Source of the DNA: Escherichia coli
GTDB lineage: Bacteria; Pseudomonadota; Gammaproteobacteria; Enterobacterales; Enterobacteriaceae
DNA: 64,000 nucleotides
NCBI RefSeq assembly: GCF_029227855.1
Contig: NZ_CP074358.1
Direction: 5' to 3' (one strand)
Translations under genes and position numbers: made by a program
The notes under the pieces: generated by a model
Databases searched by the model: none
The model's input: only the letters and a program-made list of their open reading frames with translations
Told to the model about the DNA's origin: nothing
In this document: one piece after another, positions 9,664-63,969 of the stretch
How the letters are laid out: every line of letters starts with the position of its first letter
How positions within the stretch are numbered: position 1 is the stretch's first letter

Positions 9664-9674
9664 TATATCAGAAT
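9657..9674. repeat. Perfect 18-bp palindrome attctgatatatcagaat containing the stop codons of both convergent genes (parR and impB)
   Basis: Read directly; TGA at 9661-9663 (+) and TGA at 9670-9668 (-) are symmetric within the palindrome. Confidence 0.8.
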
Positions 9675-10939
9675 GAAGCAATGGGGATCTCAGTCCATTG
9701 TGTTGTATACGAAGGCGAGAGCATTTCCCGTTTCATTTGCCATTCAGGGGCGGTTCCTCGCCCCGCAAACCACACTTTCCCTTTTCCCGACTGGTTCAGT
9801 TCATCGAGTGTTTTCATTAACTTTTCACTGTTTTTACGGGGCTGGATTTCATCAAATAATCCCGGCTGCGCTATACCCGATGGTGTGAAATCAGCCAGCA
9901 TGACTCCTGCCTTCATATAGCGGTACCCTTCACGCCAGACATGGTTTAAGGCTCTGCATGCGGCGGCAATAATGTCCCGGCTGTCCTGTGTGGGCAATGG
10001 AAGCTTTTCCACAGCGGCATTGCTGTAACAGGGTTCTTTTACTGCAAAGGGGGATGTCCGTACAAATGTCGTCACCTGCCGGCAATACTGACGCTCCCCA
10101 CGTAGTTTCTCTGCGGCCCGCTCTGCATACTGAACAACAGCCTGGTGCATGGCATCTTTGTCTGTGATTCGTTCACCAAAACTGCGACTACAGACAATCT
10201 GCTGTTTTGCCGGTGGTGCTTCTTCCAGGGATATGCAGGACTCGCCGTTGAGTTCGCGTACCGTACGCTCAAGAATGACGCTGAAGTTTTTCCGGATGAA
10301 TGCCGTGTTAGCCTGCGCCAGCTGCAGTGCTGTGTTAATACCCAGCGCATTCAGCTTTTCCGTCAGTCTGCGTCCTACTCCCCAGACCTCACCAACTGGC
10401 TGCAGCCCCAGTAGCTTCAAGGTCCGATTACGGTTTTCTGCCGTCAGCGCGACCACTCCGGAAAACTGTGGCCATTGCTTTGTTGCCCACTGTGCACTTT
10501 TAGCCAGCGTTTTTGTAGGCGCAATGCCCACCCCCATGGTGAGTCCTGTCCAGCTCTTTACCTGTTCCCTGAGCTGATGACCAAAAAACTCCGGAGAGAT
10601 GCAATGATTTATCCCCCGCAAATCAATAAACATTTCATCAATTGAGTAGGGCTCAACTGCGGGAGAAAGCGACTCCAGAACAGCCATGACCCGTTGGCTC
10701 ATGCTGTGGTACAGCGCATAATTGCTGGAAAATACATGTATTTTCTTCTCCAGGCGCATCTGTCTCACCTGAAACCAGGGCTGCCCCATTCTGATGCCAA
10801 GGGCTTTTGCCTCCGGGCTGCGCGCGATCACACAGCCATCGTTATTGCTGAGTACGATGACCGGTTCGTTGCGAAGGTCCGGGCGGAAAACTTTTTCACA
10901 TGAGGCGTAGAAACTGTTGATATCAGCCAGTGCAAACAT
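9668..10939 (-). CDS. impB: Y-family error-prone DNA polymerase catalytic subunit (UmuC/MucB/ImpB family)
   Basis: N-terminus MFALADINSFYASCE...VIVLSNNDGCVIARS, typical UmuC/DinB fold; 423 aa. Confidence 0.9.
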   Translation of the reverse strand: MFALADINSFYASCEKVFRPDLRNEPVIVLSNNDGCVIARSPEAKALGIRMGQPWFQVRQMRLEKKIHVFSSNYALYHSMSQRVMAVLESLSPAVEPYSIDEMFIDLRGINHCISPEFFGHQLREQVKSWTGLTMGVGIAPTKTLAKSAQWATKQWPQFSGVVALTAENRNRTLKLLGLQPVGEVWGVGRRLTEKLNALGINTALQLAQANTAFIRKNFSVILERTVRELNGESCISLEEAPPAKQQIVCSRSFGERITDKDAMHQAVVQYAERAAEKLRGERQYCRQVTTFVRTSPFAVKEPCYSNAAVEKLPLPTQDSRDIIAAACRALNHVWREGYRYMKAGVMLADFTPSGIAQPGLFDEIQPRKNSEKLMKTLDELNQSGKGKVWFAGRGTAPEWQMKREMLSPSYTTQWTEIPIASF

Positions 10940-11376
10940 CAGCGTAACTCCCGCGTCCTGTGTATCACGTGAGTGACAACACCAAAAATACAGATGTTTT
11001 CCGGATACAGTGTGCGGAATTCCGGGCTGTCTGAAACCGGCTCCAGTGCCGGGCGTGGGCGCAACAGCAGTCGTTTGACGGTGAACTCACCGTCGATCTC
11101 AGCGATAACGATGTCCCCGTGTTGTGGTTTTTCGGCCCTGTCCACTACCAGCAGATCACCATTCTGCACGCCAGCCTGGTTCATCGATTCACCGCTGGCG
11201 CGCAGAAAGAAGGTGGCTGCAGGTCTGCTGATGCAATAGCTGTTCAGATCCAGTTCCTGCTCAGCATAATCAGTGGCAGGCGAAGGAAAACCGGCCTGGC
11301 AACGATCGGCAAACAACGGTCGCACGTAACTGTCATCGCCTGAAGGGTCAGCCGGACGGTGATAAACGGTACTCAT
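10939..11376 (-). CDS. impA: UmuD/MucA/ImpA-like LexA-type S24 peptidase accessory subunit
   Basis: 145 aa; S24 self-cleaving peptidase motifs (…AGFPSPA… SM… VVDR… GDIVIAEIDGEFTVKRL). Confidence 0.9.
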   Translation of the reverse strand: MSTVYHRPADPSGDDSYVRPLFADRCQAGFPSPATDYAEQELDLNSYCISRPAATFFLRASGESMNQAGVQNGDLLVVDRAEKPQHGDIVIAEIDGEFTVKRLLLRPRPALEPVSDSPEFRTLYPENICIFGVVTHVIHRTRELR

Positions 11377-30649: not shown

Positions 30650-31009
30650 ATGAATGCTGTTTTAAGTGTTCAGGGTGCTTCTGCGCCCGTCAAAAAGAAG
30701 TCGTTTTTTTCTAAATTCACTCGTCTGAATATGCTTCGCCTGGCTCGCGCTGTGATCCCGGCTGCTGTTCTGATGATGTTCTTCCCGCAACTGGCAATGG
30801 CAGCACAGGGCCAGGACCTGATGGCAAGCGGTAACACCACGGTTAAGGCGACCTTCGGTAAGGACTCCAGTGTTGTTAAATGGGTCGTTCTGGCTGAAGT
30901 TCTGGTCGGTGCGGTCATGTACATGATGACCAAAAACGTCAAGTTCCTGGCCGGTTTTGCCATCATCTCTGTATTTATTGCTGTGGGTATGGCCGTCGTT
31001 GGCCTCTGA
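30650..31009 (+). CDS. traA: Propilin TraA (F-pilin precursor)
   Basis: Long leader then mature pilin ...[65 protein letters not shown]. Confidence 0.95.
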
Positions 31010-31023
31010 CAGGAAATAAAACG

Positions 31024-39130: not shown

Positions 39131-39759
39131 GATGCCGGGGGCTGATTGCCCTGCTGATATGGGGGCAGAGTGTGGCCGCCGCCGATCTTGGTACCTGGGG
39201 CGATCTGTGGCCGGTAAAGGAGCCGGACATGCTGACGGTGATCATGCAGCGCCTGACGGCACTGGAGCAGTCCGGTGAGATGGGCCGGAAAATGGATGCC
39301 TTTAAGGAGCGGGTGATCCGCAACAGTCTGCGGCCCCCTGCCGTGCCCGGTATCGGACGCACGGAGAAATACGGTAGCCGGTTGTTTGACCCGTCCGTCA
39401 GACTGACTGCGGATATCCGGGATAACGAAGGGCGGGGGGTTGCCCGTCAGGGTGAAGTGATGAATCCGCTGCAGTATGTTCCTTTTAACCAGACGCTGTA
39501 TTTCATCAATGGCGATGATCCGGCGCAGGTGGCCTGGATGAAACGCCAGACGCCGCCCACACTGGAGAGCAAAATTATCCTCGTGCAGGGCAGTATCCCG
39601 GAGATGCAGAAGTCTCTGGACAGCCGTGTTTACTTTGACCAGAACGGTGTGCTCTGCCAGCGCCTCGGCATTGATCAGGTCCCGGCACGGGTGAGCGCCG
39701 TTCCCGGCGATCGCTTCCTGAAGGTGGAATTTATTCCGGCAGAGGAGGGCAGAAAATGA
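39127..39759 (+). CDS. traW: TraW pilus assembly protein (210 aa)
   Basis: Start moved to MRCRGLIALLIWGQSVAA (signal peptide), ATG 39127 overlapping trbI stop. Confidence 0.85.
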   Translation: MRCRGLIALLIWGQSVAAADLGTWGDLWPVKEPDMLTVIMQRLTALEQSGEMGRKMDAFKERVIRNSLRPPAVPGIGRTEKYGSRLFDPSVRLTADIRDNEGRGVARQGEVMNPLQYVPFNQTLYFINGDDPAQVAWMKRQTPPTLESKIILVQGSIPEMQKSLDSRVYFDQNGVLCQRLGIDQVPARVSAVPGDRFLKVEFIPAEEGRK

Positions 39760-51535: not shown

Positions 51536-53725
51536 ATGAGTTTTAACGCAAAGGATATGACCCAGGGCGGTCAGATTGCGTCCATGCGTATCCGCATGTT
51601 CAGCCAGATCGCCAATATCATGCTTTACTGCCTGTTTATTTTTTTCTGGATACTCGTTGGTCTGGTTTTATGGGTAAAAATAAGCTGGCAGACGTTTGTG
51701 AACGGCTGTATTTACTGGTGGTGTACCACGCTGGAAGGCATGCGGGATTTAATCAAGTCCCAGCCGGTCTATGAGATCCAGTATTACGGCAAAACCTTCC
51801 GGATGAATGCTGCTCAGGTACTGCATGATAAATATATGATCTGGTGCGGAGAGCAGCTATGGTCCGCATCCGTTCTGGCCACAGTTGTGGCACTGGTTAT
51901 TTGCCTGATTACCTTCTTTGTTGTCTCCTGGATTCTGGGGCGTCAGGGTAAACAACAGAGCGAAAATGAAGTCACAGGTGGTCGTCAGCTGACAGACAAT
52001 CCGAAAGACGTTGCCCGGATGCTGAAAAAAGACGGCAAGGACTCCGATATCCGGATTGGCGACCTGCCGATTATCCGGGATTCTGAAATCCAGAACTTCT
52101 GTCTGCACGGCACGGTCGGGGCCGGTAAGTCGGAAGTTATCCGTCGTCTGGCCAACTACGCCCGTCAGCGCGGTGATATGGTGGTGATTTATGACCGTTC
52201 AGGGGAATTTGTTAAAAGTTACTATGATCCCTCCATCGATAAGATCCTGAATCCGCTGGATGCCCGCTGTGCCGCCTGGGATTTATGGAAGGAGTGTCTG
52301 ACACAGCCGGATTTTGATAATACGGCAAATACCCTGATCCCGATGGGCACAAAAGAGGACCCGTTCTGGCAGGGTTCAGGACGTACCATTTTTGCGGAAG
52401 CGGCGTACCTGATGCGTAATGACCCCAACCGCAGCTACAGCAAACTGGTGGACACACTGCTTTCCATCAAAATCGAAAAACTGCGTACCTTCCTGCGTAA
52501 TTCACCGGCGGCCAACCTGGTGGAAGAGAAAATTGAGAAAACGGCGATTTCCATCCGTGCTGTGCTGACCAACTACGTGAAAGCCATCCGTTACCTGCAG
52601 GGGATTGAGCATAACGGTGAGTCTTTTACCATCCGTGACTGGATGCGGGGTGTCCGGGAAGATCAGAAAAACGGCTGGCTGTTTATCTCGTCGAATGCCG
52701 ACACCCATGCCTCCCTGAAGCCGGTGATCTCCATGTGGCTGTCCATTGCCATTCGTGGTCTGCTGGCAATGGGAGAAAACCGTAACCGTCGTGTGTGGTT
52801 TTTCTGTGATGAGCTACCCACGTTACACAAACTGCCGGACCTGGTGGAGATCCTGCCGGAAGCCCGTAAGTTCGGTGGCTGTTATGTGTTTGGTATCCAG
52901 TCCTATGCCCAGCTGGAAGATATCTACGGTGAGAAAGCGGCTGCCACGCTGTTTGACGTCATGAACACCCGTGCCTTTTTCCGTTCTCCCAGCCATAAGA
53001 TTGCAGAGTTCGCTGCCGGTGAGATTGGTGAGAAAGAGCACCTGAAAGCCAGCGAGCAGTACTCCTACGGTGCTGATCCGGTACGTGACGGGGTATCGAC
53101 CGGTAAGGATATGGAGCGCCAGACGCTGGTCAGTTATTCCGACATTCAGTCTCTGCCGGATTTGACCTGTTATGTCACCCTGCCCGGACCGTATCCGGCA
53201 GTAAAACTCTCACTGAAATATCAGGCACGTCCGAAGGTTGCCCCTGAGTTTATTCCGCGTGACATCAACCCGGAAATGGAGAACCGCCTGAGCGCCGTAC
53301 TTGCCGCAAGGGAAGCAGAAGGTCGTCAGATGGCCAGCCTCTTCGAACCGGATGTGCCGGAAGTTGTTTCCGGAGAAGACGTGACTCAGGCTGAACAGCC
53401 GCAACAGCCGCAACAGCCGCAACAGCCGCAACAGCCGCAACAGCCGGTGTCTCCTGCCATCAACGATAAGAAGTCAGATTCAGGTGTGAATGTTCCGGCA
53501 GGGGGGATCGAGCAGGAGCTGAAAATGAAACCGGAAGAAGAGATGGAACAGCAACTGCCACCCGGGATCAGTGAATCCGGTGAAGTGGTGGATATGGCCG
53601 CTTATGAGGCATGGCAACAGGAAAATCATCCGGACATCCAGCAGCAGATGCAGCGTCGTGAAGAGGTGAACATTAATGTGCACCGGGAGCGCGGGGAGGA
53701 TGTTGAGCCGGGAGATGATTTCTGA
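51536..53725 (+). CDS. traD: TraD type IV coupling protein
   Basis: 729 aa; N-terminal TM segments, Walker [10 protein letters not shown]-terminal (QQP)n tail. Confidence 0.95.
53393..53446 (+). repeat. 9-bp tandem repeat (caacagccg x6, first unit gaacagccg) encoding the TraD QQP tail
   Basis: Read directly from sequence; translates to [18 protein letters not shown]. Confidence 0.9.
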
Positions 53726-56700
53726 TGATGAGTATCGCGCAGGTCAGATCGGCCGGAAGTGCCGGTAACTATTATACCGACAAGGATAATTACTATGTGC
53801 TGGGCAGCATGGGAGAACGCTGGGCCGGCAGGGGGGCTGAACAGCTGGGACTGCAGGGCAGTGTCGATAAGGATGTTTTTACCCGTCTTCTGGAGGGAAG
53901 GCTGCCGGACGGAGCGGATCTAAGCCGCATGCAGGATGGCAGTAACAGGCATCGTCCCGGCTACGACCTGACCTTCTCCGCCCCCAAAAGTGTCTCCATG
54001 ATGGCCATGTTAGGTGGCGATAAGCGCCTGATTGATGCACATAACCAGGCCGTGAACTTTGCTGTTCGTCAGGTGGAGGCGCTGGCCTCCACACGGGTGA
54101 TGACGGACGGACAGTCAGAAACGGTGCTGACCGGTAATCTGGTGATGGCACTGTTTAACCACGACACCAGTCGCGATCAGGAACCACAGTTACACACGCA
54201 TGCGGTGGTGGCTAATGTCACGCAGCATAACGGTGAGTGGAAGACACTGAGCAGTGACAAAGTGGGGAAAACGGGGTTCATTGAGAATGTGTACGCTAAT
54301 CAGATTGCCTTTGGCAGGCTCTATCGGGAAAAACTGAAAGAGCAGGTTGAGGCGCTGGGCTATGAAACCGAAGTGGTGGGTAAGCACGGTATGTGGGAGA
54401 TGCCGGGCGTACCGGTGGAGGCCTTTTCCGGACGCTCACAGGCTATCCGAGAGGCCGTCGGGGAAGATGCCTCGCTGAAATCCCGGGATGTGGCGGCACT
54501 GGATACGCGAAAATCCAAACAGCACGTCGATCCTGAAGTCAGAATGGCTGAATGGATGCAGACGCTGAAGGAAACCGGGTTCGACATCCGGGCATATCGT
54601 GACGCGGCGGATCAGCGTGCGGAGACCCGCACGCAGGCGCCCGGGGCTGTTTCACTGGAGGGGCCGGATGTGCAGCAGGCGGTGACACAGGCGATTGCCG
54701 GATTAAGTGAACGAAAAGTGCAGTTTACGTACACGGACGTGCTGGCCAGAACAGTCGGCATACTGCCGCCGGAAAATGGTGTGATTGAACGGGCACGCGC
54801 CGGTATCGATGAGGCCATCAGCCGTGAGCAGCTCATCCCCCTCGATCGTGAGAAGGGGCTGTTCACGTCCGGGATTCATGTGCTCGATGAGCTGTCAGTC
54901 CGGGCACTCAGTCGTGACATCATGAAACAGAACCGGGTGACCGTACATCCGGAGAAAAGTGTCCCCCGGACGGCCGGTTACAGCGATGCGGTCAGTGTTT
55001 TGGCACAGGATCGCCCGTCGCTGGCTATTGTGTCCGGGCAGGGCGGTGCAGCCGGGCAGCGTGAGCGGGTGGCGGAGCTGGTCATGATGGCCCGGGAGCA
55101 GGGGCGGGAGGTGCAGATTATCGCCGCTGACCGTCGCTCGCAGATGAACCTGAAGCAGGATGAACGGCTGTCCGGTGAGCTGATAACCGGACGTCGTCAG
55201 CTGCAGGAGGGCATGGCCTTCACGCCGGGCAATACTGTTATCGTTGACCAGGGCGAAAAACTCTCCCTGAAAGAGACGTTAACCCTGCTGGACGGTGCTG
55301 CACGTCATAACGTACAGGTCCTGATAACCGACAGCGGGCAGCGAACCGGTACAGGCAGTGCACTGATGGCCATGAAAGATGCCGGGGTGAACACATATCG
55401 CTGGCAGGGGGGAGAACAGCGGCCGGCCACCATCATCAGTGAACCGGACCGTAATGTCCGCTATGCCCGGCTGGCAGGAGATTTTGCGGCCAGCGTGAAA
55501 GCCGGAGAAGAGAACGTGGCACAGGTCAGCGGGGTACGGGAACAGGCCATACTGACACAGGCCATTCGCAGTGAGCTGAAAACACAGGGCGTGCTCGGAC
55601 GCCCGGAGGTAACCATGACCGCCCTGTCGCCGGTCTGGCTGGACAGCCGGAGCCGTTATCTGCGGGATATGTACCGTCCGGGGATGGTGATGGAGCAGTG
55701 GAACCCGGAGACACGCAGTCATGACCGCTATGTTATCGACCGGGTGACGGCGCAGAGTCACAGCCTGACCCTGCGGGATGCGCAGGGTGAAACGCAGGTG
55801 GTGCGTATTTCCTCCCTGGACAGCAGCTGGTCGCTGTTCCGGCCGGAAAAAATGCCGGTGGCAGACGGCGAGCGACTGAGGGTGACAGGGAAAATTCCCG
55901 GACTCCGCGTCTCCGGCGGTGACCGCCTGCAGGTGGCATCCGTCAGTGAAGATGCGATGACGGTTGTTGTGCCGGGGCGGGCTGAACCGGCCTCCCTGCC
56001 TGTGAGCGATTCACCATTCATGGCACTGAAGCTGGAGAACGGCTGGGTGGAAACGCCAGGGCATTCCGTCAGCGACAGTGCGACGGTTTTTGCCTCCGTC
56101 ACACAGATGGCAATGGACAATGCCACCCTGAACGGTCTGGCCCGCAGTGGTCGTGATGTCCGGCTGTATTCCTCACTGGATGAAACCCGTACTGCGGAAA
56201 AACTTGCCCGCCATCCCTCCTTTACGGTGGTTTCTGAGCAGATAAAGGCGCGTGCCGGTGAGACATTGCTGGAAACCGCTATCAGTCTGCAGAAAGCCGG
56301 ACTTCACACGCCGGCACAGCAGGCCATTCATCTGGCCCTTTCTGTGGTGGAAAGTAAAAACCTGGCCTTCAGCATGGTGGACCTGCTGACAGAGGCGAAG
56401 TCGTTTGCTGCAGAAGGAACCAGTTTTGTTGACCTGGGACGGGAAATCAATACGCAGATAAAACGCGGTGATTTACTGCATGTGGATGTGGCAAAAGGCT
56501 ATGGCACAGACCTGCTGGTTTCCCGTGCGTCGTATGAGGCAGAAAAGAGCATTCTTCGCCATATTCTCGAAGGTAAGGAGGCGGTCACGCCGCTGATGGA
56601 GAGAGTACCTGGCGAACTCATGGAGAAACTGACATCAGGACAGCGTGCCGCCACCCGCATGATACTGGAAACGTCCGACCGTTTCACGGTGGTGCAGGGC

Positions 56701-58995
56701 TATGCCGGTGTGGGTAAGACCACACAGTTCCGGGCGGTGATGTCAGCCGTGAACATGCTGCCGGAGAGAGAGCGTCCCCGTGTCGTTGGGCTGGGGCCCA
56801 CGCACCGTGCGGTCGGGGAGATGCGCAGTGCCGGCGTGGATGCGCAGACACTGGCGTCTTTTCTGCATGACACGCAGCTGCAGCAGCGCAGCGGAGAAAC
56901 GCCGGATTTCAGCAACACGCTGTTCCTGCTTGATGAGAGCTCAATGGTGGGCAATACCGACATGGCACGGGCATACGCCCTGATTGCGGCCGGTGGCGGT
57001 CGTGCTGTGGCCAGCGGCGACACGGACCAGCTGCAGGCCATCGCGCCCGGTCAGCCTTTCCGTCTCCAGCAGACGCGCAGTGCTGTCGATGTGGCCATCA
57101 TGAAGGAGATTGTGCGTCAGACGCCGGAACTGCGGGAGGCGGTATACAGCCTGATTAACCGGGATGTGGAAAGGGCACTGTCCGGGCTTGAGAGTGTGAA
57201 ACCGTCTCAGGTGCCACGTCAGGAGGGCGCATGGGCACCGGAGCACTCCGTGACGGAGTTCAGTCACAGCCAGGAAGCGAAACTGGCAGAAGCGCAGCAG
57301 AAGTCGATGCTGAAAGGCGAGGCTTTCCCGGATGTCCCCATGACACTGTATGAAGCCATTGTCCGCGACTATACCGGCAGGACACCGAAAGCACGGGAGC
57401 AGACGCTTATTGTCACGCACCTGAATGAGGACCGGCGCGTGCTGAACAGCATGATTCATGATGCACGGGAAAAGGCCGGTGAGCTGGGGCAGGAGCAGGT
57501 CATGGTGCCTGTCCTGAACACAGCGAATATACGCGACGGGGAGTTGCGTCGTCTCTCCACCTGGGAGACACATCGGGACGCACTTGCCCTGGTGGATAAT
57601 GTGTATCACCGGATTGCCGGTATCAGCAAGGATGACGGGCTGATAACCCTGCAGGATGCGGAAGGTAACACGCGGCTGATTTCGCCCCGGGAGGCGGTGG
57701 CTGAAGGCGTCACACTGTACACTCCGGACACCATCCGGGTGGGAACCGGTGACCGGATGCGCTTCACGAAGAGTGACCGGGAGCGCGGTTATGTGGCCAA
57801 CAGCGTCTGGACGGTGACAGCGGTTTCCGGTGACAGTGTCACGCTGTCGGACGGACAGCAGACCCGGGTGATTCGCCCCGGTCAGGAGCGGGCAGAGCAA
57901 CATATTGACCTGGCCTATGCCATCACCGCCCACGGTGCGCAGGGGGCAAGTGAAACCTTTGCCATTGCGCTTGAAGGCACGGAAGGTAACCGGAAACAGA
58001 TGGCCGGCTTTGAGTCAGCCTACGTGGCCCTGTCGCGTATGAAGCAGCATGTGCAGGTGTATACCGATAACCGTCAGGGCTGGACGGATGCCATTAACAA
58101 TGCCGTACAGAAAGGAACTGCCCACGATGTGCTTGAGCCGAAATCGGACCGGGAGGTCATGAATGCAGAGCGGCTGTTCAGTACGGCGCGGGAGCTGCGG
58201 GACGTGGCGGCCGGCCGTGCCGTTCTCCGTCAGGCAGGGCTGGCCGGGGGAGACAGTCCTGCACGGTTTATTGCACCCGGGCGCAAATATCCGCAGCCGT
58301 ATGTGGCACTGCCGGCTTTTGACCGTAACGGCAAGTCAGCAGGTATCTGGCTGAACCCGCTGACCACGGATGACGGAAATGGGCTGCGGGGCTTCAGTGG
58401 TGAAGGCCGGGTGAAAGGCAGCGGGGATGCGCAGTTCGTGACCCTGCAGGGCAGCCGTAACGGAGAGAGCCTGCTGGCTGATAATATGCAGGATGGTGTC
58501 CGGATTGCCCGTGATAATCCTGACAGCGGTGTGGTGGTAAGAATCGCCGGTGAAGGTCGTCCGTGGAATCCCGGTACCATCACCGGTGGTCGCGTGTGGG
58601 GGGATATCCCGGACAACAGCGTTCAGCCGGGAGCCGGAAATGGCGAACCGGTCACGGCAGAGGTACTGGCACAGCGGCAGGCTGAAGAGGCCATCCGCCG
58701 TGAAACGGAACGCCGTGCGGATGAAATTGTCCGTAAAATGGCAGAGAACAAACCTGACCTGCCGGACGGCAAAACAGAGCAGGCTGTCAGGGATATTGCC
58801 GGGCTGGAGCGTGACCGATCTGCCATATCTGAACGGGAAGCCGCGCTGCCGGAGAGTGTACTGCGTGAACCACAACGGGTGCGGGAAGCGGTCCGGGAGG
58901 TCGCCCGGGAAAATCTGCTGCAGGAGCGACTGCAGCAGATGGAGCGGGATATGGTTCGTGACCTGCAGAAAGAGAAAACCCTGGGCGGAGACTGA
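53725..58995 (+). CDS. traI: TraI relaxase-helicase (MobF family)
   Basis: 1756 aa; N-terminal relaxase (HTH...H.H motifs), two helicase regions with Walker A GYAGVGKTT; start overlaps traD stop (TGATG). Confidence 0.97.
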   Translation: MMSIAQVRSAGSAGNYYTDKDNYYVLGSMGERWAGRGAEQLGLQGSVDKDVFTRLLEGRLPDGADLSRMQDGSNRHRPGYDLTFSAPKSVSMMAMLGGDKRLIDAHNQAVNFAVRQVEALASTRVMTDGQSETVLTGNLVMALFNHDTSRDQEPQLHTHAVVANVTQHNGEWKTLSSDKVGKTGFIENVYANQIAFGRLYREKLKEQVEALGYETEVVGKHGMWEMPGVPVEAFSGRSQAIREAVGEDASLKSRDVAALDTRKSKQHVDPEVRMAEWMQTLKETGFDIRAYRDAADQRAETRTQAPGAVSLEGPDVQQAVTQAIAGLSERKVQFTYTDVLARTVGILPPENGVIERARAGIDEAISREQLIPLDREKGLFTSGIHVLDELSVRALSRDIMKQNRVTVHPEKSVPRTAGYSDAVSVLAQDRPSLAIVSGQGGAAGQRERVAELVMMAREQGREVQIIAADRRSQMNLKQDERLSGELITGRRQLQEGMAFTPGNTVIVDQGEKLSLKETLTLLDGAARHNVQVLITDSGQRTGTGSALMAMKDAGVNTYRWQGGEQRPATIISEPDRNVRYARLAGDFAASVKAGEENVAQVSGVREQAILTQAIRSELKTQGVLGRPEVTMTALSPVWLDSRSRYLRDMYRPGMVMEQWNPETRSHDRYVIDRVTAQSHSLTLRDAQGETQVVRISSLDSSWSLFRPEKMPVADGERLRVTGKIPGLRVSGGDRLQVASVSEDAMTVVVPGRAEPASLPVSDSPFMALKLENGWVETPGHSVSDSATVFASVTQMAMDNATLNGLARSGRDVRLYSSLDETRTAEKLARHPSFTVVSEQIKARAGETLLETAISLQKAGLHTPAQQAIHLALSVVESKNLAFSMVDLLTEAKSFAAEGTSFVDLGREINTQIKRGDLLHVDVAKGYGTDLLVSRASYEAEKSILRHILEGKEAVTPLMERVPGELMEKLTSGQRAATRMILETSDRFTVVQGYAGVGKTTQFRAVMSAVNMLPERERPRVVGLGPTHRAVGEMRSAGVDAQTLASFLHDTQLQQRSGETPDFSNTLFLLDESSMVGNTDMARAYALIAAGGGRAVASGDTDQLQAIAPGQPFRLQQTRSAVDVAIMKEIVRQTPELREAVYSLINRDVERALSGLESVKPSQVPRQEGAWAPEHSVTEFSHSQEAKLAEAQQKSMLKGEAFPDVPMTLYEAIVRDYTGRTPKAREQTLIVTHLNEDRRVLNSMIHDAREKAGELGQEQVMVPVLNTANIRDGELRRLSTWETHRDALALVDNVYHRIAGISKDDGLITLQDAEGNTRLISPREAVAEGVTLYTPDTIRVGTGDRMRFTKSDRERGYVANSVWTVTAVSGDSVTLSDGQQTRVIRPGQERAEQHIDLAYAITAHGAQGASETFAIALEGTEGNRKQMAGFESAYVALSRMKQHVQVYTDNRQGWTDAINNAVQKGTAHDVLEPKSDREVMNAERLFSTARELRDVAAGRAVLRQAGLAGGDSPARFIAPGRKYPQPYVALPAFDRNGKSAGIWLNPLTTDDGNGLRGFSGEGRVKGSGDAQFVTLQGSRNGESLLADNMQDGVRIARDNPDSGVVVRIAGEGRPWNPGTITGGRVWGDIPDNSVQPGAGNGEPVTAEVLAQRQAEEAIRRETERRADEIVRKMAENKPDLPDGKTEQAVRDIAGLERDRSAISEREAALPESVLREPQRVREAVREVARENLLQERLQQMERDMVRDLQKEKTLGGD

Positions 58996-59014: not shown

Positions 59015-59761
59015 ATGACAACGGATAACACGAACACAACACGTAATGATTCACTGGCTGCCCGGACCGATACTTGGTTGCAGTCGTTGCTGGTCTGGTC
59101 ACCCGGACAGCGGGATATCATCAAAACGGTGGCACTGGTGCTGATGGTTCTGGACCATGCAAACCGCATTCTACATCTGGACCTGTCGTGAATGTTTCTG
59201 GTCGGGCGTGGGGCCTTTCCGCTGTTTGCCCTGGTGTGGGGGCTGAATCTGTCCCGTCATACGCATATCCGGCAGGAGGCCATTAACCGGCTGTGGGGAT
59301 GGGCGGTGATTGCCCAGTTCGCATATTATCTGGCCGGCTTTCCCTGGTATGAGGGGAATATCCTGTTTGCCTTTGCAGTTGCGGCACAGGTGCTGACATG
59401 GTGTGAAACGCGCACCTGGTGGCGTTCCGCAGAGACCATGTTGCTTCTGGCAATGTGGTTACCTTTCTCCGGCACCAGTTACGGCATTGCCGGGCAGCTG
59501 ATGCTGGCAGTCAACCACAGGCTGTACCGGGCGGAAGACAGAATGGAACGTCTGGCGCTGGTCGCCTGCCTGCTGGCTGTTATTCCGGCGCTTAACCTTG
59601 CCACCAGTGATGCAGCGGCGGTGGCCGGCCTTGTGATGACGGTGCTGACCGTTGGTCTGGTGTCGTGTGCAGGAAAATCATTACCCCGTTTCTGGCCCGG
59701 GGATTTTTTCCCGACGTTCTATGCCTGTCATCTGGCTGTGCTGGGCGTTCTGGCGCTGTGA
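59015..59761 (+). pseudogene. traX: traX (F-pilin acetylase) interrupted by an in-frame TGA at codon 59 (59189-59191)
   Basis: 58-codon ORF from ATG 59015 and the 189-codon ORF 59192-59761 are contiguous in one frame, separated by a single TGA; together they give a TraX-sized polytopic membrane protein. Confidence 0.7.
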
Positions 59762-59815: not shown

Positions 59816-60376
59816 ATGACAGAGCAGAAGCGACCGGTACTGACACTGAAGCGGAAGACAGAGGGAACAGCGCCTGTCCGCAGCCGGAAAACCATCATCA
59901 ATGTCACCACGCCACCAAAATGGAAGGTGAAAAAGCAGAAGCTGGCGGAGAAAGCGGCTCGGGAGGCAGAGCTGGCGGCAAAAAAAGCGCAGGCCAGACA
60001 GGCGCTGTCCATTTATCTGAACCTGCCCACACTGGATGAAGCCGTGAACACCCTGAAGCCCTGGTGGCCGGGATTATTTGACGGTGACACCCCCCGGCTT
60101 CTGGCCTGCGGTATCCGGGACGTGTTACTGGAAGACGTGGCGCAGCGGAATATCCCGCTCTCGCATAAAAAACTGCGCAGGGCGCTGAAGGCCATCACCC
60201 GTTCAGAAAGCTATCTGTGTGCCATGAAAGCCGGTGCCTGCCGGTATGACACGGAAGGGTATGTGACGGAGCATATTTCTCAGGAGGAGGAAGCGTATGC
60301 GGCAGAGCGTCTGGATAAAATCCGTCGCCAGAACCGGATAAAGGCAGAACTTCAGGCCGTGCTTGATGAGAAATAA
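59816..60376 (+). CDS. finO: FinO fertility-inhibition RNA chaperone (186 aa), apparently intact
   Basis: [17 protein letters not shown]...; uninterrupted reading frame; hairpin gcctcc-N10-ggaggc after stop. Confidence 0.9.
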
Positions 60377-61233
60377 AAAAAAGCCTCCATCAGAGAGAGG
60401 AGGCAGGGAAATAAGGCTTAAAAGGAAATAACTTCCGTACCCGAAAGGAAGCCAGTCCACTGAATTATTTACCACAATAATACTGACGACTAAAAGGGAG
60501 GGGCAGAAAAATGAATGGATTCAGAAACAGTTCACGGAACGGTCAGGTCTGGCGCTGGCAGCGTGCCGGAAGCCGGGCCGTTATTCTGGAGGTCAGTGGA
60601 CGCTGGATGGATGCGGCAGAAGCATGGCGACGGGCTGCCGGTGTTGCGCCCCGGACAGACTGGCGGCAGTTTGCCCGAAAAAGGGCTGCACACTGCCACC
60701 GGCGCTGCCGGGGAAGGGTGTAACGAAAAAAGCAGCCTTCATTACTCCTGGAGTCAGAAGGCTGAATAATGCATGAGATTTACTTTTTTAATCTCCGGTC
60801 GGGTAGTATGACCGGACAACTCTGAGTAGCACAGAGTTTTTTTCCGTATTAAGTCGTGATTTTATATTTTGTGATTTATTTCACAAAATAAGGTGTTATT
60901 CAATGTGTGCTGCAATATTCAGGATGCCTGAAATACAGGTGCCATTTATTTGATATGGAGAATAACATGAGGGAATATATTCCACTGGTATTATTTATCT
61001 TTTCATAGCCGGTATTGTCTGCAGATATTTATGGGCAGGTTGTTCGTGTACTGGGCCAGCAGGAAAGTCTGTGCAGAAGCTTACGGTTTGAATAAGTTGA
61101 ACCCCATAAGACTCTGATTAATATAATTTGTGGCACACAGATACTTGCGGGAAAAGTGTTTCGCACTGAATCTTAACTGGAAATGTAAACTATTTTTAAC
61201 ACCCCCAAAATCCTTTTGGGGAACAACTCATGC

Positions 61234-63794: not shown

Positions 63795-63969
63795 ACCTGA
63801 CCTCCTCTGAATAATCCGGCCCGCGCCGGAGGCTTCCGCACGTCTGAAGCCCGATAGTGCACAAAAAAACAGCACCACATACAAAAAACAACCTCATCAT
63901 CCACCTTCAGGTGCATCCGGTTCCCCCTGTTTTTAATACAAAATACGCCTCAGCTATGGGGAATTTTGC

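Follow-up and report, generated by a model that had tools for sequence, protein, structure and literature searches.

A premature UGA codon in traX of an F-type plasmid transfer operon in Escherichia coli, a probable recent pseudogene or severe hypomorph

The traX locus and its surroundings

We analyzed a 64,000-nucleotide stretch of Escherichia coli DNA (NCBI RefSeq assembly GCF_029227855.1, contig NZ_CP074358.1; here called the window), in which the distal end of an F-type tra operon carries traX, the pilin N-acetylase gene, between traI and finO, in the same order as in related plasmids. The traI reading frame (positions 53725-58995, + strand) ends with a stop codon at 58993-58995, and an ATG at 59015, 19 bases past this stop, opens the traX locus (59015..59761, + strand). 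No uninterrupted frame for the whole protein is found at this locus. Instead, the frame runs for 58 sense codons (59015..59188, + strand) to an in-frame TGA at codon 59 (59189..59191, + strand) and then continues for a further 189 codons (59192..59761, + strand), ending at the TGA at 59759-59761. The second piece begins with an ATG that directly adjoins the premature stop, giving TGAATG at positions 59189-59194. Together, the two pieces and the stop between them make 58+1+189 = 248 codons, which is the length of the traX gene annotated in relatives (747 bp). An earlier note on this DNA had described traX as split by a single in-frame TGA at codon 59 into two frame pieces that add up to the size of TraX; the coordinates were reproduced exactly in our analysis, and the 248-codon total is that of the relatives.

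The finO gene (59816..60376, + strand) lies 54 bp downstream of traX and encodes 186 amino acids, with no internal stop. Among fifteen genes checked from traW to finO, only traX contained an internal stop codon, and the region from traM to trbI is covered by open reading frames of the expected sizes. The gene for the TraX substrate, the propilin gene traA (30650..31012, + strand), is also uninterrupted. Judged by these reading frames, the F-type transfer operon around traX appears to be otherwise intact. By analogy to F (PMC7555446), the propilin is predicted to be cleaved between Ala51 and Ala52, with the mature part encoded at 30803-31012. The predicted mature pilin N-terminus differs in sequence from that of F pilin. 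It may resemble the N-terminus of ColB2-type pilin.

We also observed that, at the traD/traI junction (53722-53727), the stop codon of traD and the start codon of traI overlap, and nothing is inserted between the two genes. In pECC-1470_100 and pRHB17-C12_2, the plasmids with the closest traX, a vapBC toxin-antitoxin cassette lies between traD and traI. Since this cassette is present in the nearest relatives and not here, the tra region of the window is mosaic relative to them. In a separate part of the window (9668-11376, - strand), adjacent 423-aa and 145-aa open reading frames have the sizes of an umuDC/impAB-like pair of a Y-family DNA polymerase and a peptidase S24 that is present in related contigs; matching plasmids name this region "Y-family DNA polymerase", and the two frames may be such a pair.

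The ancestral codon, neighboring substitutions, and the rarity of the allele

When codon 59 was restored to Trp, the traX product matched the profiles of the full-length family, namely Pfam TraX (PF05857) over residues 32-246 with an E value of 1.9e-63 and two NCBIfam equivalog models, NF010260 (526 bits, cutoff 419) and TIGR02755 (396 bits, cutoff 149). At the DNA level, the traX stretch was matched by thousands of F-like plasmids. The nearest were pECC-1470_100 and its relatives, at 99.2% identity over 1001 bp, and over the 747 bp of the locus, the intact traX annotated in pECC-1470_100 differs at 7 sites (99.1% identity). The relatives that are annotated start at this same ATG and encode an unbroken TraX of 248 aa, between traI and finO. 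For the ancestral codon we used a panel of 8 loci from related plasmids, and base 59191 is G in every one of them, with codon 59 reading TGG (Trp59). Because all 8 panel relatives read TGG, we take the lesion to be a G>A nonsense change at 59191. An alignment to intact traX had been called for in the earlier note, together with the statement that TraX is continuous here and that a change of a Trp codon from TGG to TGA is the parsimonious one; the F-like relatives, with their continuous 248-aa protein and TGG in 8 of 8 loci, bear this out. Its description of the gene as a nonsense pseudogene likewise holds up, with a single-base stop inside the TraX domain at a position where all panel relatives have the ancestral Trp.

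Compared with the 8-locus panel, traX has five window-specific substitutions, and three of these, all on the + strand, were unmatched in PLSDB in short-query searches: A>T at 59184 (Q57L), in a variable loop and 7 bp before the stop; G>A at 59191 (W59*); and T>A at 59496 (L161Q), next to the near-invariant G160. All three alter the protein. At position 161, 25 of 26 TraX homologues have L, V, I, or M, and the sequence here has Gln. The remaining two + strand changes, a synonymous G>A at 59173 (L53) and a G>A at 59514 (S167N), are ordinary segregating polymorphisms found also in pCFS3246-1 and in MSB1_9I plasmid 2, respectively; we rejected a count of five private substitutions because these two occur in other traX backbones. 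Mismatches to the nearest PLSDB record over equal 747-bp segments numbered 7 in traX, 3 at the 3' end of traI, and 2 in finO. This excess of traX over its flanks (7 vs 2-3, in nearest-record comparisons) is modest and fits what relaxed constraint after inactivation would produce. A panel-based estimate of enrichment (5 changes in 747 bp vs 1.25 per kb) was dropped because the panels were of unequal size.

Across positions 39001-59514, from traW to traX, 20 of 30 panel-private substitutions are GC>AT transitions and 18 of the 27 coding ones are nonsynonymous, counts that are provisional since private status was scored against a small panel of 4 to 8 loci from close relatives. Such GC>AT-rich, nonsynonymous private changes suggest either that the lineage has recently gained mutations not yet purged or that the consensus is somewhat noisy. 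Some of the panel-private changes are tightly clustered: a pair of T>G changes in traW separated by 2 bp (39437-39439; V104G, F105V), a group of five in 24 bp of the intergenic DNA past finO (60749-60772), and several within 21 bp near the repA region (63935-63955). Recombination patches, multi-base mutational events, and local errors are all conceivable sources of these clusters.

The collections in which we looked for the TGA allele were PLSDB, complete E. coli genomes, species-representative genomes, and metagenome contigs, and the window's own record is not among them. A 41-mer carrying the TGA, for which an exact 28-mer across the stop was needed, had no match among 72,556 PLSDB plasmids or in 5,426 complete E. 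coli genomes. The allele was also not found in species-representative genomes (two exact-pattern scans) or in metagenome contigs (one exact-pattern scan), and the exact 189-aa product has no record among public gene calls. The best PLSDB matches to the window as a whole are mosaic, with about 96-98.5% identity over 25 kb for most records; one record is 99.4% identical to the window query but covers 80% of it. Because the TGA allele is absent from all collections searched, we consider it recent and without sign of being maintained. Only the allele itself is new; apart from that, this is an ordinary nonsense mutation, private to its lineage, in an accessory gene that is already known.

TraX database entries of 188-212 aa were considered as independent truncations and rejected, since they are either partial entries at contig edges or what large tra deletions left behind. 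Among them are recurrent 205-aa gene calls that start at Met44, designated P0094 (public contigs L012-L014) and P0118 (L011), from plasmids in which large deletions took most of the tra region together with the 5' end of traX. The traX remnant has finO behind it on L012-L014, and on L011 it is followed by a finO called in two pieces.

A base-call or assembly error, in which the true plasmid would have TGG at codon 59 and an intact traX, is in our judgment unlikely. It would explain why the TGA allele was absent from all other public sequences searched and why it lies only 7 bp from the unmatched change at 59184, since clustering of this kind can mark a poor consensus, and the spacing of 59184 and 59191 would be equally expected from one that is locally poor. 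The many panel-private, mostly nonsynonymous substitutions across the window could also reflect a noisy consensus. However, the change is a substitution, whereas most sequencing error modes typically give indels, and flanks of equal length are also 2-3 sites off every PLSDB record, which points to an under-sampled lineage rather than to an obviously error-ridden sequence. In addition, no other checked tra gene is broken, and L161Q, which alters a conserved hydrophobic site, is in keeping with real decay of the gene.

Position of the stop and the fate of the two traX pieces

To place the stop within the protein, we aligned the restored TraX (alignment A2) with 26 homologues ranging in identity from 30 to 91%. 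D34, D47, and H48 are invariant in all 26, position 37 is K or R in all 26, and these four positions lie upstream of the stop at codon 59. Downstream of it, G64 is shared by all and R occupies position 65 in 25 of the 26 homologues, while W59 itself varies among distant ones. The first-helix motif of TraX, D-x-x-K/R-x10-H, is present and is encoded by the 58-codon fragment only. Its spacing here (D34-x-x-K37-x10-H48) agrees with that of the DxxRx10H motif of AT3 acyltransferases, the residues of which have roles in acyl-CoA binding or proposed roles in catalysis, with the Arg usually replaced by Lys in TraX (PMC12423673). An AlphaFold model of the restored protein built on alignment A2 (pLDDT, 92; pTM, 0.88) has helices at residues 6-26 and 30-52, with the motif in the latter, a loop at residues 53-57, and the next helix from residue 58, which puts codon 59 at the beginning of the helix after the loop. 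Solved structures were also searched by sequence, without a match. The stop is inside the Pfam TraX domain (residues 32-246), just past the motif helix; the 58-codon open reading frame encodes the helix at 6-26 and the motif helix, and the 189-codon rest covers the other helices (residues 58-247).

When the two fragments were scored separately against NF010260, they reached 110 and 394 bits, the latter for the 189-aa piece, and both fall below the cutoff of 419. The 189-aa piece passes the looser TIGR02755 cutoff, and it lacks the whole D-x-x-K-x10-H motif. In the 20 bases before the ATG at 59192, we found no Shine-Dalgarno signal above background (-3.0 kcal/mol vs a mean of -3.2), and the anti-Shine-Dalgarno pairing at this site was the weakest of 27 starts compared. 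Re-initiation at the adjacent ATG, which the earlier note had offered as an alternative, is thus left without Shine-Dalgarno support. Because the residue at Met60 is Leu in 21 of 26 homologues, this Met is not a conserved alternative start. With background pairing, an unconserved Met60, and a split that is unique to the window, the arrangement does not look like that of a translationally coupled two-cistron gene. From these features of the sequence, the downstream piece is unlikely to be made or active.

We consider it very unlikely that the locus specifies a functional split enzyme, in which translation would terminate at the UGA and re-initiate at the AUG of UGAAUG and the 58-aa and 189-aa products would assemble into active TraX. 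Some split polytopic membrane proteins do reassemble functionally, as fragments of lactose permease do, and this precedent, the direct contact of the premature stop with the ATG, and a break that in the AlphaFold model falls at a helix boundary after a loop, cutting no helix, would be consistent with such an arrangement. The poor start site at 59192 and the unconserved Met60 nevertheless argue against it, L161Q falls in the second piece, and the arrangement is present in no other sequence searched and so shows no sign of selection for it. The chance that the downstream 189-aa reading frame alone is the real active TraX, with reference proteins effectively starting there, is in our estimation very slim indeed. 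Its score above the TIGR02755 cutoff would agree with such a short form, as would the two products of F traX, of 24 and 22 kDa with a common C-terminus, that are reported in a review (PMC7555446). In contrast, relatives are annotated from the upstream ATG, Leu predominates at position 60, and the 189-aa piece stays under the NF010260 cutoff; in addition, the invariant D34, D47, and H48 and the K/R at position 37 are all upstream, at positions that are needed for function in related acyltransferases (PMC12423673). With the Pfam domain beginning at residue 32 and D34, K37, D47, and H48 all ahead of the stop, a start of reference TraX proteins at the downstream ATG, which had been raised as a point that could overturn the nonsense reading, is ruled out.

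Read-through, predicted consequences, and comparison with known systems

We are fairly confident that the traX nonsense change is real and inactivating, or nearly so, which would make this allele a recent pseudogene or a severe hypomorph. In the mechanism that we propose, a single G>A transition at 59191 would have turned Trp59 (TGG) into UGA, and translation from the ATG at 59015 would normally end after 58 residues. The resulting fragment would comprise no more than the N-terminal helix plus the first core transmembrane helix, which bears the D-x-x-K-x10-H motif, the remaining TraX helices would not be made in useful amounts, and the enzyme would be lost or nearly lost. The mature pilin, with Ala52 of TraA at its N-terminus, would then mostly lack the acetyl group, while pili would still be assembled and DNA transferred. 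As it stands, the locus is best annotated as a pseudogene and not as two small open reading frames, and would not be counted as a functional member of the TraX family.

Two reports (PMC2270907, PMC7555446; citing Moore 1993 and Maneewannakul 1995), and likewise PMC5102898, state that TraX is needed for acetylation of the pilin N-terminus and that pilus elaboration and transfer proceed without need of it, and these statements agree with the earlier claim that TraX is dispensable for transfer. From this literature, we expect the pilin of the plasmid here to be mostly unacetylated and transfer to be retained. The TraX of the pESBL transposon study (PMC4288162) comes from an IncI-type system and was set aside.

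The premature UGA is followed by an A (UGA-A). In PMC5289835 (citing Engelberg-Kulka 1981), UGA with A at position +4 is given as the context most prone to tRNA-Trp misreading in E. coli, and Trp-tRNA-Trp competes with RF2 at UGA, with a general read-through frequency of 1e-3 to 1e-2 (PMC10570021). Misreading of this codon by tRNA-Trp would re-insert the ancestral Trp59, so that occasional read-through could plausibly yield trace amounts of the complete TraX protein, with Q57L and L161Q still in place. Since distant homologues vary at W59, insertion of any residue during read-through might be tolerated. It is because a trace read-through product is plausible that we call the allele a pseudogene or severe hypomorph. 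For programmed recoding, by read-through or selenocysteine, a stop conserved among homologues would be expected; we found TGG in 8 of 8 panel relatives, and TGA in none of the collections searched.

In a simple scan of the DNA between traX and finO, we found neither a promoter-like site on the + strand nor a convincing terminator, and Rho-dependent polarity of the traX stop on finO, 54 bp downstream, caused by the untranslated traX mRNA, is conceivable. If such polarity occurs, FinO would be lower and transfer of the plasmid partly derepressed. The finO gene of F has an IS3 insertion (PMC7555446), whereas finO is uninterrupted here, and we infer from this that the plasmid is probably repressed for transfer by FinOP. 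An allele that is not silent, either because read-through or a split enzyme leaves substantial pilin acetylation or because Rho-dependent polarity affects finO, seems to us improbable.

The main value of this analysis lies in correct annotation of the locus, as one traX pseudogene that a stop codon interrupts. Should the A at 59191 be genuine, the host would be a natural traX-null, or very leaky-null, F-like donor, and a natural null in an otherwise intact, finO-positive plasmid could serve as a comparison strain for the role of pilin acetylation. We see value in such a comparison because traX is kept in 88% of MOBF12 plasmids (PMC5102898) though it is dispensable for transfer in the laboratory, and because a pOX38 traX::kan mutant had altered biofilm-associated colistin tolerance (PMC2270907).

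The traX genes of F and F-like plasmids share with this locus the position between traI and finO, the start codon, the length of 248 codons, and the D-x-x-K-x10-H motif, and they differ from it in the TGA at codon 59 and in the unmatched missense changes Q57L and L161Q. The stop has in common with leaky UGA-A termination by tRNA-Trp in E. coli that UGA is followed by A and that the ancestral Trp would be inserted; unlike programmed read-through signals, it is not conserved, and relatives simply have TGG. The 5'-truncated traX remnants of the P0094 and P0118 plasmids are, as traX here probably is, non-functional copies in natural plasmids, but they result from large deletions, whereas the lesion here is a single base in an intact operon. 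In the laboratory F null pOX38-traX482 (traX::kan), as is proposed for the plasmid here, traX function is lost in an otherwise transfer-proficient F-type system, and the same outcome is expected of both, with unacetylated pilin and with pili and transfer kept. The lesion described here differs from that of pOX38-traX482 in being an apparently spontaneous and potentially leaky point nonsense change, with no insertion, in a plasmid with an intact finO.
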